Below, in pieces: positions 11,285-63,558 of a stretch of DNA of 64,000 nucleotides. The DNA comes from a virus (taxonomy: Duplodnaviria; Caudoviricetes). The notes under the pieces were generated by a model that worked only from the letters and a program-made list of their open reading frames with translations, was not told the DNA's origin and did no database searches. The stretch's first letter is position 1; every line of letters begins with the position of its first letter. The position numbers were made by a program, and so were the translations under genes. The stretch lies in the IMG/VR virus record IMGVR_UViG_3300025674_000014; one strand, 5' to 3'.

Positions 11285-12324
11285 GCTGATCTATATTCCG
11301 GTGTGGGTTCAGGGGCATGTGTTTTTAATATGTCCCAAACTTTATAAAACTGAATCATACTTTTTCTAGCTTCATTTTCGGCCCCGTAATCAACGAATGC
11401 GGGGTCGTTTTCCCCATCATGTGGCCAATCTTGGAAGTGAATAGTAAACGGTTTTCGTATTAAATAGTATGCACTTAAAATAATTTCTTCAGTAAAGAAA
11501 TCAGATTCAGGTGGCCTGGTAGCTGCAAGGGTTTCTAACCCTTTTTCATAAAAAGAAAACAACTTATCAAATTCTTTTGGTTGTAGTCCAATAACACCAC
11601 CTACTAGCTGGTATCTCATTGAAGCATCTTCTTGAGAAAAACCATACTCTTTCATTAATAAGTTCTTAAGATGATTAACGTGATAACTATTATACCAAAT
11701 GTTACTATGTTTAAATTCAAACATACCATGTTTAGTAATTAAGTTATCTAAACCTTTACCAATTTCAGGAGTATAAATGTTATTCTTGTTCCAAGGCCAG
11801 TAATGCCTCTTATCAAAGAAATTATTAATCTCAACACCACCTTTACTAAACGGTGTCAAAGCCCAATGAGTTATACCCGAATCAATCCAACAGAAGTTTT
11901 CAGTATTAAATGGATTTTCCTCAGCAACACTTTTTACAAAGTAAAGTTTTCTGTGACACAAAATTTCACAACGTGCATGAAAGAAACCCGGTTCATCAGG
12001 ATTAGTTTTTTTACGTTCTTCTGCTTCCCATGTTTGATATTCAATGCAAGCTTCTCTATGCTTTCTAATAATATCTTTATATTTGAAATCACCAATCTCA
12101 CTCTTAATAATTTTCCATCTGTTTTCGCCTGTCACCATTGTTAGGTATTCCATATACCGTTTAACTTTGTGATAACCTCTATCATCACAATGGACAACAA
12201 TTGGTAAGCCGAAGTTGTAAATGTTTTGTAAGGAAGAGAAGTAATACTGTTCTTGCCAACTACGTCCTCCGAACTCTCCCTCTCTATCACTAAAATAAAT
12301 TCCTGTAACTAATGTAGTACTCAT
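11281..12324 (-). CDS. HtrL/YibB (WlaTC)-like glycosyltransferase
   Basis: TTLVTGIY, KLYFVKSVAEENPF..ENFCWIDSGI and FTEEIIL. Oriented opposite to its neighbours. Confidence 0.55.
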   Translation of the reverse strand: MSTTLVTGIYFSDREGEFGGRSWQEQYYFSSLQNIYNFGLPIVVHCDDRGYHKVKRYMEYLTMVTGENRWKIIKSEIGDFKYKDIIRKHREACIEYQTWEAEERKKTNPDEPGFFHARCEILCHRKLYFVKSVAEENPFNTENFCWIDSGITHWALTPFSKGGVEINNFFDKRHYWPWNKNNIYTPEIGKGLDNLITKHGMFEFKHSNIWYNSYHVNHLKNLLMKEYGFSQEDASMRYQLVGGVIGLQPKEFDKLFSFYEKGLETLAATRPPESDFFTEEIILSAYYLIRKPFTIHFQDWPHDGENDPAFVDYGAENEARKSMIQFYKVWDILKTHAPEPTPEYRSA

Positions 12325-28283: not shown

Positions 28284-29180
28284 ATGTCCGGTAGGTGTTA
28301 TGTATTTACTGATGCTGATTTAGATGGTGTTGGTAGTTTTATGGTTAGTAGGTGGTTAAAGGGTATAACATCCTTTACCACAACTACTCATAAACACTTT
28401 AGAGAAGATTTTGTTAGGTGGTTGTCGTCTAATAAGCTTTCCGACTATGAAAAAGTCTATATATTCGACATCAACGTTGCTGAACATTTTGATTTACTTG
28501 ATCATCCTAACGTTAACGTTATTGATCACCATAATGGTAAAGATGGTTACGTAAATTTTAATAAAGCTACGTTGGTGCTCGACCAAGACTTTAGTTCTAC
28601 TACTAAGTTAGTACTTAAAACATTTCTTCGTGAAGATCCTTCCTTAAGTTCCAAGTTAACTCATCAAATAGCCAAGTTTGTTAACCTTGTGGATGATTAT
28701 GATAGCTATAAATTAGCTTTACCTGACAGTATCGGTCTTAATAACGTGTTATGGTCGTATACCGGTAACCGTGTTACTAAGTTCTTAGAAGAGTTTAGTT
28801 TAGGCTTTAATGGTTTCAGTACGTTCCATAAAAACATGATAGCTATAGCCGAAAAGAAGGTACAAGATACAGTTAATACTGTTGATACGTTCATGGTTAA
28901 CTTTCCTATAGATGGAAAGGAACGTAAAGTGGTGTGTATTCAATGTGACCATAACATAAATGAAGTAGCTTATGAAGTTTTAAAGAAACATAACGCAGAT
29001 ATTTGTTTAGTTGTTAATTTAAAATCAAAAAGTGTAAGTTTTAGAAAATCAAAGTCGTGTAACGTTAACCTTTCTAAGTTAGCTAACAAGTTATGTGACG
29101 GTGGAGGTCATTCTGACTCTGCAGGCGGAGCAGTTAATGAAAAATTTCTTAAATTAAGTAAGATGTTTACTAAAATATGA
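28284..29180 (+). CDS. DHH/DHHA1 phosphoesterase
   Basis: DADLDG, FD, IDHH, DDYD and GGGH..SAGG motifs. Confidence 0.85.
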   Translation: MSGRCYVFTDADLDGVGSFMVSRWLKGITSFTTTTHKHFREDFVRWLSSNKLSDYEKVYIFDINVAEHFDLLDHPNVNVIDHHNGKDGYVNFNKATLVLDQDFSSTTKLVLKTFLREDPSLSSKLTHQIAKFVNLVDDYDSYKLALPDSIGLNNVLWSYTGNRVTKFLEEFSLGFNGFSTFHKNMIAIAEKKVQDTVNTVDTFMVNFPIDGKERKVVCIQCDHNINEVAYEVLKKHNADICLVVNLKSKSVSFRKSKSCNVNLSKLANKLCDGGGHSDSAGGAVNEKFLKLSKMFTKI

Positions 29181-57424: not shown

Positions 57425-57455
57425 TTTTGAAGGAGTATAAACATGTAAATAAAAG

Positions 57456-57480
57456 AGGGGTGGGTAGGTGGGATTTTTTT
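57456..57480 (+). other. G-rich tract followed by T7 (possible G-quadruplex element)
   Basis: GAGGGGTGGGTAGGTGGGATTTTTTT, intergenic, in a very AT-rich context. Confidence 0.4.
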
Positions 57481-57512
57481 GATTTTTATGGGATAGTAGC
57501 TTAAATAATTTT

Positions 57513-57929: not shown

Positions 57930-57942
57930 AATTATTCGTATG

Positions 57943-57970
57943 AGCGGTCACTTCGGTGGCCGCTTTTTTT
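57943..57970 (+). terminator. Rho-independent terminator
   Basis: AGCGGTCAC-TTCG-GTGGCCGCT followed by a T run. Confidence 0.9.
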
Positions 57971-58003: not shown

Positions 58004-58987
58004 ATGGATTGTGTCGTAACTGCTCTATACGAAGTCGAACCGTATTTTTTAGACGGTGACCCGTATAGACCTACGTTATGTAGACAAATGGCATTTGATT
58101 ATTATGTAGGTGGGTTGTATAGTCTCAAGGGTCTTAATAAAGATATAATTTTATTTTGTAATGATAGACCTATAAACTTCAGAGGTAAAGATATTACACC
58201 TAAAGAAGTGATTGATCAAATAATTCCCGATAAAGATTTTACAAAACAAATAAAATTTGTACCAATAAGTTTACCTAAATTTTATACTAAATACGATAAA
58301 CATTGGGAACAGTGTACTAAAATAGCTCAAAATAATCCTGATAGGTTACTTTGTTGGAACCCACCAATGGCTTGTTGTAGGGGTGATATATTTGATTACG
58401 TTTTTAAAAATTATAATTACGATACTGCTATTTGGTTTGATGCAGCGTTATCTAATGAATCGTACGTTAGTACAAAGTATGGCGGTACGTGGCATGATTG
58501 GGAATTAAATGATTGGAAAAATTATTACCCAGATAATAAAGAAGCTATTTTTTGTCCAGATTTTTATAATAATATAGGTAAGATTGTTAAAGAGTATGGT
58601 AATATTATTTGTGGTTTGAATTGGATGAATTTAGAACCTAAAGATTTCATCAAACAACAATTAATAAAAAATAACAACCCTACATTTTACAATTTTTCAT
58701 CAACAGGAGCATTTTTAGGATTTACTAAAGATTATTTTTATAATAATTTTTATAATGATTATAATAAAGCATTAGATACGTTTATAGATAATTATGATGA
58801 TATATTTACAGAAATAGAAGTGTTTTCATATATGAATATGTTTAAAGACTTTGCTAAAGTTATGTGGACTAGTTTTCACTCTAATATATTCGATGGTAGT
58901 ATGCAAAAAGCATTTTTAGATATTGTTGATGGTAACTTTAAAGTGAGATTTAATGATAGTTTAGGCAAGGAGAATTTAAATGAATAA
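58004..58987 (+). CDS. Putative HtrL-like glycosyltransferase
   Basis: CVVTALYE, AIWFDAAL, GAFLG and FTEIEVF parallel the motifs of 11281..12324. Confidence 0.45.
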   Translation: MDCVVTALYEVEPYFLDGDPYRPTLCRQMAFDYYVGGLYSLKGLNKDIILFCNDRPINFRGKDITPKEVIDQIIPDKDFTKQIKFVPISLPKFYTKYDKHWEQCTKIAQNNPDRLLCWNPPMACCRGDIFDYVFKNYNYDTAIWFDAALSNESYVSTKYGGTWHDWELNDWKNYYPDNKEAIFCPDFYNNIGKIVKEYGNIICGLNWMNLEPKDFIKQQLIKNNNPTFYNFSSTGAFLGFTKDYFYNNFYNDYNKALDTFIDNYDDIFTEIEVFSYMNMFKDFAKVMWTSFHSNIFDGSMQKAFLDIVDGNFKVRFNDSLGKENLNE

Positions 58988-59687
58988 AACAACAAAATAT
59001 GCATTAGTTATACCTACATTTGAAAATAATATAGGTTATAAATTAGCAGCTATAGACACCTACTTAAAAGAATTACCAAAAAATGTAGACATATTCTTTG
59101 TATATGGTGGTAAAGTAGATGAGGTTAATAAAGTTTTTAGGAACGGTGTAGAATTTTACGATGTTTATTGTAATACACCCGATAGAATAGAAGTGCTTCA
59201 TAAAAAACTTTTTTACTTCTTTAAAAAATTTAAAAAACAACTTTTAGAATATGATTATATTGTAAAAGTAGATGATGATGCATTTATCATGAATGTTGAT
59301 GCATTTACCACAAGTAAATTTTCAGGAGATTATATTGGTAATAAAGTAGATATAAATGATAAAAATGAAGAACAATTAAGAAGTAAATTGAATCATCTAA
59401 AAAATTATAAAGTAAGGGACAAATATACTGGTGATTTACCAAGTAACTTTTGTTCTGGAGAATTCGTTATTTTTTCCAATAAATCATTACAAGTACTTTT
59501 ATCTTATAATGGTGGGTTAAAAAGAAAAAATTATGGTTTAGAAGATATTTTTATAGGTGATATTTTAACTCAAAATGATATAAAAATTACTATAAATAAA
59601 GTTTTTAATATAGAACACCCAGTAACTGAGCCTAACTTTTACAAACTTTATACCACACATTATGAAAAAGTAGTTGAAAAGGTTTGA
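58980..59687 (+). CDS. GT31-like galactosyltransferase
   Basis: YDYIVKVDDDAF, FCSGEFVIFS and LEDIFIG motifs. Confidence 0.65.
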   Translation: MNKTTKYALVIPTFENNIGYKLAAIDTYLKELPKNVDIFFVYGGKVDEVNKVFRNGVEFYDVYCNTPDRIEVLHKKLFYFFKKFKKQLLEYDYIVKVDDDAFIMNVDAFTTSKFSGDYIGNKVDINDKNEEQLRSKLNHLKNYKVRDKYTGDLPSNFCSGEFVIFSNKSLQVLLSYNGGLKRKNYGLEDIFIGDILTQNDIKITINKVFNIEHPVTEPNFYKLYTTHYEKVVEKV

Positions 59688-59692
59688 CTATG

Positions 59693-59710
59693 TATAAATA
59701 GATATAAATA
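59693..59710 (+). promoter_or_regulatory. Tandem T4-type late promoters
   Basis: TATAAATA at 59693-700 and again at 59703-10. Confidence 0.6.
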
Positions 59711-59715
59711 AATTT

Positions 59716-59796
59716 GACCATGCAAGTTAGTTTGTGGGTTATAATGCCTGTGGTGGGGCTTATAACTAAGTAGGTGGGACTTGCATGGTTTTTTTT
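59716..59796 (+). ncRNA. Candidate structured small RNA
   Basis: 11-bp outer stem (59717-27 with 59779-89), inner stem GTTATAA.GCC with GGC.TTATAAC, T8 tail, late promoters upstream, and no ORF. Confidence 0.5.
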
Positions 59797-59818
59797 GTCT
59801 TTTTTTTTAATTATCTAT

Positions 59819-60610
59819 ATGAAAGTTCTCGTTATTGGAGAAAAATGTATAGATAAATTTACTTACGGTAAAGCTTTTCGATTATGCCCTGATTATCCTG
59901 CACCTGTATTCACCCCCGGTAGAGAAGTTATTGATGACGGTATGGCAGGTAACGTTGTTAACAACTTAAAAAGTTTAGGTATTGAACCTGACTTTTACCA
60001 CAATAGAGAAGAATTAACTAAACAACGTTATGTGGATGAACTTACAAACCACACTTTTCTTAGAGTAGATAATACTGACAGAGTTGCAAACTTAGATGCT
60101 TCTAAATTAATGGTTGGGCGAACATTAAACGATTATGATTGTGTTGTTATATCTGATTACTGTAAGGGATTCCTTTCGGAAAATAGTATAGAATATATTT
60201 GTAGGTTACACGGTAATGTTATTATTGAAACTAAAAAGGTACTTGGAGATTATTGTAAGAAAGCAAAATTTGTAAAAATGAACGAGAAAGAATATGAGGA
60301 TATTAAACCTTATATTAATCTTGAAGAATGGAAGGATAAATTAATTGTTACTTTAGGTGATAAAGGATGTTTATATAACGGTAAAATTTACCCAGTAGAT
60401 AAAGTTGAAGTTTTTGATTTATGTGGAGCCGGAGATACTTGGTTAGCTACTTTTGTTTATGGTATGTTAAAACATAAAGATACAGAACTAGCTATACCTT
60501 TAGCTAACAAAGCAGCAACTCAAGTAGTACAAAGAAGAGGTGTCGTAGCAGTTTATAGTAGACAAAACGAAAAAGGAGAACACGAGATTGTTAAAAAATT
60601 GAAATGCTAA
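59819..60610 (+). CDS. PfkB-family sugar kinase, RfaE/HldE kinase-domain-like
   Basis: VIGEKCID, GMAGNV, VISDYCKG, VTLGDKG and DLCGAGDT motifs. Start ATG 59819. Confidence 0.8.
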   Translation: MKVLVIGEKCIDKFTYGKAFRLCPDYPAPVFTPGREVIDDGMAGNVVNNLKSLGIEPDFYHNREELTKQRYVDELTNHTFLRVDNTDRVANLDASKLMVGRTLNDYDCVVISDYCKGFLSENSIEYICRLHGNVIIETKKVLGDYCKKAKFVKMNEKEYEDIKPYINLEEWKDKLIVTLGDKGCLYNGKIYPVDKVEVFDLCGAGDTWLATFVYGMLKHKDTELAIPLANKAATQVVQRRGVVAVYSRQNEKGEHEIVKKLKC

Positions 60611-60631
60611 GATTGTATATATAATACATTT

Positions 60632-60850
60632 ATGGCTAAAAAGTATAATCTTAAACCTTGTCCTTTTTGTAACAGTAAAAAATTGATTGAATGGCAAATG
60701 TTAGGTAGCCAGCGTTTTTGGAATATTATGTGTACAAAATGCGGTGCAATGGGACCGCAAATAGAAAATGACCACAAACCTACTGCTATCAGATGTATAA
60801 GTGAATCGTGGAATAGAAGAATAAATAGTAACGATGTTATTCAAGATTAA
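60632..60850 (+). CDS. Lar-like zinc-finger protein (restriction alleviation family)
   Basis: LKPCPFC...CTKCGAMGP...WNRR. Confidence 0.65.
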   Translation: MAKKYNLKPCPFCNSKKLIEWQMLGSQRFWNIMCTKCGAMGPQIENDHKPTAIRCISESWNRRINSNDVIQD

Positions 60851-61889: not shown

Positions 61890-61974
61890 GCCAGTGTGAT
61901 GAAATTGGAAAACATAACAGACTTAAAATCTGTCGCCTTCGGGCTTGTCGGTTCAAGTCCGACCACTGGTACCA
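61890..61974 (+). tRNA. tRNA-Leu(UAA)
   Basis: Acceptor GCCAGTG/CACTGGT, anticodon arm ACAGA-CTTAAAA-TCTGT, long variable arm, GTTCAA and encoded CCA. Confidence 0.95.
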
Positions 61975-61979
61975 TTTTA

Positions 61980-62056
61980 GCCAAAGTAGCTTTAATTGGC
62001 AGAGCAGTTGATTTGTAATCATCAGGTTGTCGGTTCGAGTCCGACCTTTGGCTCCA
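61980..62056 (+). tRNA. tRNA-Thr(UGU)
   Basis: Acceptor GCCAAAG/CTTTGGC, anticodon loop TTTGTAA, GTTCGAG and encoded CCA. Confidence 0.95.
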
Positions 62057-62080
62057 TTTTAAAATAAATATAAACGATAT

Positions 62081-62290
62081 ATGAAAAACAGTACAGTATT
62101 ATTATGGTGGTTCCTATACATGTTGGTAGGAGCTGTAGCAGGATTCGGTGGATCATTCGTAGCAGGCATTGTGCTTGGTATGATTGGTGTATCAGAACTA
62201 CTAGCGATGGTAATCCTCCTTCCGTTATTGATCTATATTAATTTCGTTGTTTTTAGGTGGTCAGTTGGTAAGATCATTGCTGATTCATAA
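62081..62290 (+). CDS. Small membrane protein with two hydrophobic helices
   Basis: 69 aa, almost entirely hydrophobic. Confidence 0.6.
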   Translation: MKNSTVLLWWFLYMLVGAVAGFGGSFVAGIVLGMIGVSELLAMVILLPLLIYINFVVFRWSVGKIIADS

Positions 62291-62484
62291 TGAACGAGGA
62301 ATGCATAGAATTATTCAACAAGATATACGAAGAGATTGATGTCTTAGTTGAAGGTACTGATCCAAAAGTTCAACGCATTCCTAATATTACAGTTAATACG
62401 AGACTTAAACGTATTAAAAAAGATCTTAGAGTTCTAGACACAAAGCTGTTTATGAACTCTAAATTTTTGGAAGGTCTACTTTAG
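62290..62484 (+). CDS. Hypothetical protein
   Basis: 64 aa ORF. Confidence 0.5.
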   Translation: MNEECIELFNKIYEEIDVLVEGTDPKVQRIPNITVNTRLKRIKKDLRVLDTKLFMNSKFLEGLL

Positions 62485-62599
62485 ATGGCTAGCCAGTTTG
62501 CTCACCATAATTTATCTATACTAGTTGTGATAAAGAGAGATATAATAGGTAAGACTATTTACGCTTGATTTAATTAGTGGCGCAATTAACATCTTTTTA

Positions 62600-62619
62600 T
62601 AAGGGCCTTAGCTCAGCTG
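62600..62619 (+). repeat. Duplicated 5' fragment of tRNA-Ile(CAU)
   Basis: TAAGGGCCTTAGCTCAGCTG versus TAAGGGCCCTTAGCTCAGCTG at 63479-99 (1-nt indel). Confidence 0.85.
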
Positions 62620-62649
62620 ATTTTAAAAAAATTAAATTCAGTATTATAA

Positions 62650-62679
62650 TTAAAATCAGCATCACTTCAAGTGATGCTG
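62650..62679 (-). terminator. Probable terminator for the methyltransferase gene
   Basis: Perfect 9-bp stem CAGCATCAC/GTGATGCTG, followed on the minus strand by ATTTT. Confidence 0.55.
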
Positions 62680-62708
62680 TAAACACCGTAAATAAGTATT
62701 ATTGAAAT

Positions 62709-63413
62709 TTATATATTATTTTTAACTAAAAATAATTTATCATCACTTATTTGCTTCATTTTTCTATAAGTTATTGGTTCACAATACAACTTGCTAGGTA
62801 CCCTACCTTCAATGTTAGGCATTATTAAAGCAGTACCTCTACCGATTGGTATATTAACACAGATGTGATTATTTTCTTCAGACCATTTTTTAACACCGTT
62901 ATATACATCTGAATCATGATCTGTCATTCCTGGCCAACGAACAGTATCATGACATGTAATAATCCAATCATCACTACTCATTCTACTCCCATAATTACAT
63001 AAATCTTTATAAACTTGTTCTTCAGAATGATCTGCATCAACATGTAGGTAATCGATATTTTCGAACTGATTATAAACATCATCTGTTTTACAATTTATTA
63101 ATTTTATAAACGGATAACCTAATAACCCCTCTTTTGAGTAATACCTTTCTCCCCACGGTTCAGGTATATCTGCATCAATTAAAGTAATATCTATTTGTTG
63201 TAACAAACCAGCTTTTATTAATTCACTTTGGGCATAATGTAAAATTTTAGGAACAAAACCCGAACCTGAACCTAACACAACACATTTTTTACTAATAAAA
63301 GTATACACAAATGTGTAATAAAATAAACTCATTCCAGGATGATATTTATCTGCTCCATGGCTTTCGGGATACTTGTTAGTATCAATTAGTTCATATATTT
63401 TTTTAAGATCCAT
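62709..63413 (-). CDS. Class I SAM-dependent methyltransferase (Methyltransf_24-like)
   Basis: VVLGSGSG, LIDAD, YLHVDADHS and CHDT motifs. Confidence 0.8.
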   Translation of the reverse strand: MDLKKIYELIDTNKYPESHGADKYHPGMSLFYYTFVYTFISKKCVVLGSGSGFVPKILHYAQSELIKAGLLQQIDITLIDADIPEPWGERYYSKEGLLGYPFIKLINCKTDDVYNQFENIDYLHVDADHSEEQVYKDLCNYGSRMSSDDWIITCHDTVRWPGMTDHDSDVYNGVKKWSEENNHICVNIPIGRGTALIMPNIEGRVPSKLYCEPITYRKMKQISDDKLFLVKNNI

Positions 63414-63481
63414 AACATAATTACTTAAACTATAAAGTTGAAATTTATAGGGTATAAGTATAATAAGTTATATAAACTTAA

Positions 63482-63558
63482 GGGCCCTTAGCTCAGCTGG
63501 TTAGAGCATTCGACTCATAATCGACAGGTCGTAGGTTCAAGTCCTACAGGGCCCACCA
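63482..63558 (+). tRNA. tRNA-Ile2(CAU), lysidine type (tRNA-Met is the alternative)
   Basis: Acceptor GGGCCCT/AGGGCCC, loop CTCATAA and encoded CCA; overall sequence resembles bacterial ileX-type tRNAs. Confidence 0.88.

Follow-up and report, generated by a model that had tools for sequence, protein, structure and literature searches.

To our knowledge, very few small RNAs of lytic phages have been described, and the large uncultured T4-like phages, which dominate the viromes of aquatic habitats, have contributed almost none. The RNAs catalogued in such phages (manA, wcaG, PhotoRC and glnA) are cis-regulatory candidates. T4 itself produces two stable RNAs, C and D, which are encoded near its tRNA cluster, are processed from the tRNA precursor and have neither a promoter nor a terminator of their own. 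Late transcription in T4 depends on a TATAAATA box read by gp55/gp33/gp45. Outside phages, the small RNA GcvB uses a G/U-rich single-stranded seed to pair with C/A-rich sites in mRNAs.

Phage-encoded small RNAs have been reviewed (PMC12197685). Among structured RNAs, manA (RF01745) and wcaG (RF01761) occur in T4-like cyanophages and marine metagenomes, where they adjoin sugar or exopolysaccharide genes; manA also lies beside ibpA/hsp20 and nucleotide-synthesis genes, and has been reported upstream of ibpA/hsp20 in cyanophages (PMC2864571). In the HMP-PP (thiS motif) riboswitch, the aptamer is embedded in a terminator (PMC6478431).

Here we describe a structured element in a 64,000-nt stretch of viral DNA (the window). 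Among the products of its genes are replication and virion proteins of the T4 type. The DNA polymerase shares only ~32% identity with cultured-phage homologues, with best matches to gp43 of T4-like cyanophages, and the phage therefore has no cultured relative. Judged by these genes, the source is an uncultured, deeply branching T4-like aquatic phage.

Layout and fold of the element

The element lies on the + strand between a glycosyltransferase gene (58980–59687, +; Pfam Galactosyl_T, E = 1e-7) and a pfkB-family sugar kinase gene (59819–60610, +; Pfam PfkB, E = 4e-16). A −35-like hexamer, TTGACT (59684–59689), overlaps the TGA stop codon of the glycosyltransferase gene and is followed by two TATAAATA boxes (59693–59700 and 59703–59710) whose starts are 10 bp apart. 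The outer stem joins 59717–59727 to 59779–59789 in a perfect 11-bp helix, which a U-G pair (59728/59778) extends to 12 bp, so that its strands run from 59717 to 59728 and from 59778 to 59789. Above this helix, a G/U-rich 5′ internal loop (59729–59736) faces a 3′ internal loop with the core UAGGU (59768–59777). The strands of the inner stem (59737–59748 and 59757–59767) pair first between 59737–59744 and 59760–59767 and then, past a bulged U at 59745, between GCC (59746–59748) and GGC (59757–59759), below an 8-nt apical loop (59749–59756). The sequence of this loop, UGUGGUGG, occurs only once in the window. Downstream of the helix are a T8 tract (59789–59796), which forms the tail of a predicted intrinsic terminator, and a T9 run (59800–59808). 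In total, the hairpin spans 73 nt, of which 51 nt are enclosed by the outer stem.

The original prediction had named each of these features (paired promoter-like boxes, perfect outer stem, inner hairpin, G-rich loops and both T-runs), and all of them were confirmed in detail. RNAfold returns exactly the fold that had been drawn, with a free energy of −34.8 kcal/mol and a z score of −5.2; all 200 shuffled sequences were less stable. When all runs of six or more T in the 64-kb window were scanned, the element proved to be the most stable hairpin abutting such a run. A GC-containing hairpin followed directly by T8 is what is expected of an intrinsic terminator, as predicted from sequence. The ordinary terminators of this phage are 14–24-nt GC hairpins with tetraloops (for example 57942–57965); the element is three to five times longer, which upholds the earlier argument that the enclosed region exceeds what a terminator needs.

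We then compared the element with known RNAs. With all 4227 models of Rfam 15 at gathering thresholds, only three tRNAs were detected in the whole window, and searches of 1.5 kb and of 141 nt at E values up to 10 gave only chance matches of 7–15 bits, far below gathering scores. The absence of an Rfam match sets aside the known families considered (manA RF01745, wcaG RF01761, Y RNA, 6S RNA and riboswitches). ARAGORN places tRNAs only at 61890–63558, about 2 kb from the element, which rules out a tRNA or tmRNA. The sole open reading frame that starts inside the element, from an AUG at +5, is 17 codons long in the window, 4 codons long in clade C and absent from clade B, where the start codon is replaced by AAG. 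The element is thus not a small protein gene, and the earlier statements that it is non-coding and unlike a tRNA have both held.

The loops do not fit several familiar signals. GGA, as in CsrA-type loops, is present in the window's own copy only. Shine–Dalgarno mimicry is weak, as the loops read GGUGG and UAGGU rather than GGAGG, and the U is invariant. A G-quadruplex spanning the loops was rejected as well: one copy (L012) lacks GG in its 5′ loop, and the loops are set apart by 11 bp of helix. In the full-text literature, the apical-loop octamer was found only in primers and unrelated sequences.

Predicted promoter and transcript boundaries

Sequence shared between clades extends from the ATAAATA box through the T-run, and the flanks on either side are unrelated. 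The box, at 59703–59710 in the window, belongs to the late type, (N)ATAAATA, and reads ATAAATA in 16 of 17 copies and TTAAATA in one. The upstream box (59693–59700) is confined to clade A, the duplication being limited to the closest relatives of the window. A spacer of 5 nt, or of 6 nt in one clade, separates the box either from a purine one base before the helix or from the first helix base. At the 3′ border, every copy has at least seven T, and the second T-run is restricted to the clade of the window.

The spacing of the box can be read against the protein genes of the phage. On the coding strand, intergenic NATAAATA always lies 5–6 nt before an ATG, as seen for 10 genes including the tail sheath gene (sites include 38824, 46953, 49538, 52393 and 60820 on the + strand and 44541, 43211, 6866 and 5647 on the − strand). 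Other ATGs are preceded, 5–8 nt upstream, by sigma-70-like TTGnnn-N16-18-TAnnnT boxes. Since the boxes lie so close to the ATGs, mRNAs look leaderless throughout the window, and the clade of this phage appears, from these spacings, to express all its genes from leaderless mRNAs. TATAAATA is under-represented in the window (8 occurrences versus 16.5 expected). The distance from box to start in the element equals the box-N5/6-ATG geometry of the 10 leaderless late genes, a spacing that makes G59716, one base before the helix, the predicted transcription start.

In a T4-type late promoter, the start is preceded at ~6 nt by TATAAATA, or by NATAAATA in distant T4-like phages, and there is no −35 element. 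In box and spacing the element matches the 10 late genes, but all of its copies also carry a −35-like TTG: in 17 of 17 copies compared it precedes the ATAAATA box, by 15 nt in two and by 14 nt in the others. None of the 10 late protein-gene promoters in the window has such a TTG at the matching place. A conserved −35-like TTG beside a late-type box therefore makes the promoter a hybrid, and expression is perhaps not restricted to late infection. The RNA was called late in the original prediction; the conserved TTG leaves this timing, and above all 'late only' expression, uncertain.

A similar arrangement, TTGAT-N16/17-TAAATA, precedes the hsp20 gene. The −35-like TTG and TAAATA box are common to the promoters of the small RNA (59684–59689) and hsp20 (57481–57486) and to the homologous loci, and these promoters may form a separate, hybrid class.

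The hsp20 promoter belongs to a second conserved non-coding element (57425–57512), situated between the GNAT and hsp20 genes. It comprises AAGGAG, 7 nt and a start-stop ATG-TAA (57430–57448), followed by a C-free run of G-tracts, GGGG-T-GGG-TA-GG-T-GGG-A (57455–57473), and T7; its 3′ part holds TTGAT and, 5 nt ahead of the hsp20 ATG, the box TTAAATA. Conservation of the G-tract block extends to all clades, and the element recurs in L020, L024, L145, L127, L014, L141, L007, L120, L132 and L094. The G-tract run is a possible G-quadruplex, and the whole could serve as an hsp20 leader or sensor; cmscan with permissive filters found no Rfam match for it, manA and wcaG included. A further octamer, GTAGGTGG, occurs six times in the window versus 0.7 expected (none of 100 shuffles reaches six), at 11597 on the − strand and at 28348, 52499, 57464, 58106 and 59770 on the + strand. 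Three of these sites are in coding sequence (two encode Val-Gly-Gly), and two are in the two conserved non-coding elements.

Homologues, covariation and invariant loops

Homologues were sought by way of the flanking glycosyltransferase and kinase proteins, by DNA patterns in IMG/VR, and by one metagenome scan that was screened for the stem. The element was found on at least about 35 metagenomic or viral contigs, from estuarine and marine samples such as IMG 3300025646, 3300025687, 3300012920 and 3300027868, which represent at least 13–14 distinct sequences and at least five clades; this is a shallow sample, in which all copies are orthologous and occupy one syntenic site in one phage lineage. 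In these uncultured T4-like aquatic phages the site never varies and belongs to a cluster of sugar/glycosylation genes. A glycosyltransferase homologue is encoded on 12 IMG/VR contigs, every one of which also carries the element, and the flanking proteins are 53–59% identical between clades. Contigs whose kinase is 39–48% identical have no match to the covariance model, and the 3.5 kb upstream contain no hairpin of similar kind next to a T-run. In bacterial genome contigs, searched with exact loop motifs required, none of the 120 pattern matches listed had the stem, and blastn against 50,697 phage records found no cultured-phage homologue of the locus. The covariance model detected one copy per contig and no second copy or paralogue in the window or related contigs. 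As far as sampled, the new RNA family is restricted to one lineage of uncultured T4-like phages. Several contigs break at the borders of the element: L018 and L053 end 4 nt after the T-run, L131 ends inside the T-run, and L095 ends at the first base of the element. These breaks are probably an assembly effect of the hairpin and homopolymer.

The gene order around the element is conserved, with all genes on the + strand. Upstream are RNR beta, GNAT, Hsp20, a 300–337-aa protein, the glycosyltransferase and an optional 230–246-aa protein; downstream are the pfkB kinase and a Lar-like zinc ribbon. In other clades, the element is separated from the kinase by a small ORF and a sugar-phosphate nucleotidyltransferase. 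The sugar module, which spans 58004–60850 in the window, 580–5127 in L029 and 2103–6441 in L007, comprises the 300–337-aa protein, the Galactosyl_T-like glycosyltransferase, the optional 230–246-aa protein, this optional nucleotidyltransferase (PF00483), the pfkB kinase and the Lar-like zinc-ribbon protein, and it probably makes an activated sugar for glycosylation.

Covariation is seen in an alignment of 13 distinct sequences, with two main reservations: the sample is shallow, and the alignment was fitted to the covariance model. Standard pairs fill 98.3% of cells, and double compensatory changes are present at 10 of 23 pairs. None of 500 column shuffles does as well, and sliding the partners by 1–3 columns reduces pairing to 27–41%. 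The outer stem (99.4% of cells paired) has double compensatory changes at three pairs, with exchanges of U-A for A-U and of A-U for G-C, and the inner stem has them at 7 of 11 pairs; the three top pairs, GCC/GGC in the window, are GUA/UAC in relatives. G-U pairs account for 38 of 299 cells and would be A-C mismatches on the opposite strand, so the + strand is the folded strand. Consistent with this polarity, the covariance model scores the element at 75–102 bits on the + strand and 15–18 bits on the reverse strand. An additional helix proposed by RNAalifold across the internal loop was not supported, because its variable 5′ column faces an invariant A.

The loops behave differently from the stems. 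Not one of the 8 apical-loop columns varies, compared with 27 of 46 stem columns (Fisher p = 0.004). The 3′ internal loop keeps its UAGGU core in all copies, and reads GUAGGU in all but the L287–290 type, where it is AUAGGU. The 5′ internal loop is moderately variable in sequence. No C is present in any of the loops, in any copy. At the level of sequence, this pattern marks the element as a structured RNA whose fold is under selection, in which compensatory mutations show the helices to be a maintained scaffold. The original prediction would have been abandoned for a plain terminator of the upstream operon had covariation been missing; that reduction fails because the fold persists, through compensatory changes, in homologues that span at least five sequence clades. 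Together with the invariant loops, the promoter box at a fixed distance and the conserved T-run, the covariation supports the self-terminating structured small RNA that had been proposed.

Proposed function and relation to known RNAs

With no Rfam match, the element is taken to represent an undescribed family within a familiar type of molecule, the small structured RNAs encoded by phages. The explanation we favour, with about even confidence, is that the element forms a gene in its own right and encodes a structured non-coding RNA of about 75–81 nt, which most likely acts in trans through its loops. Transcription would start at or next to G59716, from the conserved promoter with its T4-type ATAAATA box and −35-like TTG. 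The 12-bp helix would lock the 5′ and 3′ ends together and be followed directly by U7–8, so that the RNA would terminate itself and should resist end-dependent decay unusually well. The same hairpin and U-tract would also stop transcripts arriving from the upstream glycosyltransferase operon. The functional surfaces are predicted to be the C-free, G/U-rich loops, namely the apical UGUGGUGG, the UAGGU core and the G-rich 5′ internal loop. By analogy with GcvB, we favour a mechanism in which these loops would base-pair with C/A-rich single-stranded sites in host RNA; alternatively, they may titrate an RNA-binding factor. When both strands of the window were searched with each of the three loops, by exact 8-mer complements and by RNAduplex, the best matches were all antisense to genes. 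There was accordingly no sense-strand complementarity above background in the 64-kb window; target complementarity, together with chaperone binding, would mark an Hfq-type base-pairing small RNA. If the RNA has an RNA target, the host is thus its more likely source.

Regulation in cis, with the element as a leader or attenuator of the downstream sugar-activation genes, is possible but doubtful. Here the loops would form a binding pocket in the terminator hairpin, and its ligand, either a protein or a metabolite such as a sugar phosphate or NDP-sugar, would determine whether transcription ends or continues, as in the HMP-PP (thiS) case. Every copy does consist of a promoter, a structured hairpin with conserved internal loops and a U-tract, with an ORF ~20 nt further on, and the downstream genes always come from the same sugar module. 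Precedents include an aptamer inside a terminator (PMC6478431) and the location of the candidate riboswitches manA and wcaG upstream of sugar genes in T4-like cyanophages (PMC2864571). However, all copies sit at one locus, and the sugar-gene association is therefore indistinguishable from plain orthology. The first downstream gene also varies between clades, no conserved anti-terminator pairing was found (pairing of the loops with the 5′ strand lacks covariation), and no Rfam riboswitch, manA and wcaG included, was matched even at permissive E values. The promoters downstream divide the clades. Clades B and C have a TATAAT box 3′ of the T-run and 6 nt before the ATG of the next gene, the usual leaderless layout of this phage; read-through is not required, and the element is therefore not needed as a leader there. 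In the clade of the window and in L007 there is no convincing box before the kinase ATG, which in L007 is 9 nt past the T-run; this agrees with attenuation, and the element could act as a leader in these phages. Should the element prove to be such a terminator-embedded sensor, it would represent a new class of regulatory RNA for phage glycan genes.

The position of the element, always 5–33 nt after the stop codon of a co-directional gene, and its possession of all features of a strong intrinsic terminator would also suit an elaborate terminator or 3′-end protector of the glycosyltransferase operon, or an operon boundary element, whose promoter boxes serve the downstream genes by read-through and whose loops are conserved for a processing or termination factor. 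We regard this as unlikely, given that the ordinary terminators of this phage are short tetraloop hairpins, and that termination needs neither an invariant 8-nt loop and a 51-nt insert kept by covariation nor a promoter box in single-base register with the foot of the helix. A role at the DNA level (an R-loop replication-origin promoter, a recombination hotspot or a protein-binding cruciform) appears extremely improbable. T4 origins use promoter-derived R-loops, the transcript is G-rich, C-poor and adjoins a promoter, and we take the apical loop to resemble the E. coli Chi octamer in six of eight positions. Such a role is contradicted by the strand asymmetry of the element, as its 38 stem G-U pairs are valid on one strand only and its reverse strand scores poorly with the covariance model, and double-stranded protein sites need no compensatory changes in stems. 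A decoy for host RNA-sensing defences had been offered as an alternative in the original prediction, and the computed results speak neither for nor against it. Very unlikely, too, is a highly stable decoy RNA whose C-free loops (UGUGGUGG, UAGGU(G) and GGUGGG) would soak up a host component; candidate partners could be the pyrimidine-rich 3′ tail of 16S rRNA, tRNA ACCA ends, or an RNA-binding regulator or defence sensor. Such a decoy would shut down leader-dependent expression or immunity in the host and spare the apparently leaderless mRNAs of the phage.

On the favoured explanation, the element would be a complete RNA gene, supported by covariation, with sharp ends, loops that never change and a start site that can be predicted. 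In a phage clade whose mRNAs all appear leaderless, a G/U-rich RNA that is abundant and stable could bear on how host expression is taken over.

In sequence logic, GcvB and other trans-acting small RNAs are closest to the element: a promoter-to-terminator unit with a 3′ hairpin and U-tract, in which G/U-rich, C-free single-stranded segments are offered for recognition. The element has no sequence or Rfam relationship to these RNAs, and its recognition segments are loops within a helix that closes the 5′ end, whereas those of GcvB form a linear 5′ seed. The HMP-PP riboswitch likewise has conserved internal- and terminal-loop nucleotides in a terminator hairpin upstream of metabolic genes, the arrangement that the element shares; its length is under 50 nt rather than 73 nt. 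The element differs further in matching no Rfam family, in yielding no conserved alternative pairing, in a gene association that at its one orthologous locus is inseparable from synteny, and in that most of its relatives have a separate promoter for the downstream gene. Like manA and wcaG, it is a structured RNA of a T4-like aquatic phage in a very similar neighbourhood; in contrast to them, it consists of one long hairpin closed off by a terminator, and cmscan with permissive filters does not relate it to either.

In its TATAAATA-type box, correctly spaced from the predicted start, the element resembles T4 late units; like RNAs C and D, it is a non-coding stable-RNA candidate near (~2 kb from) phage tRNA genes. 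It departs from both in combining its own promoter and terminator with a conserved −35-like TTG. Finally, it resembles Rho-independent terminators in its GC-containing stem, the U7–8 that follow directly and its position at the end of a co-directional operon. Set against the 14–24-nt terminators of the same phage, it is distinguished by a 73-nt span, a 51-nt structured insert, invariant loops and a promoter of its own.
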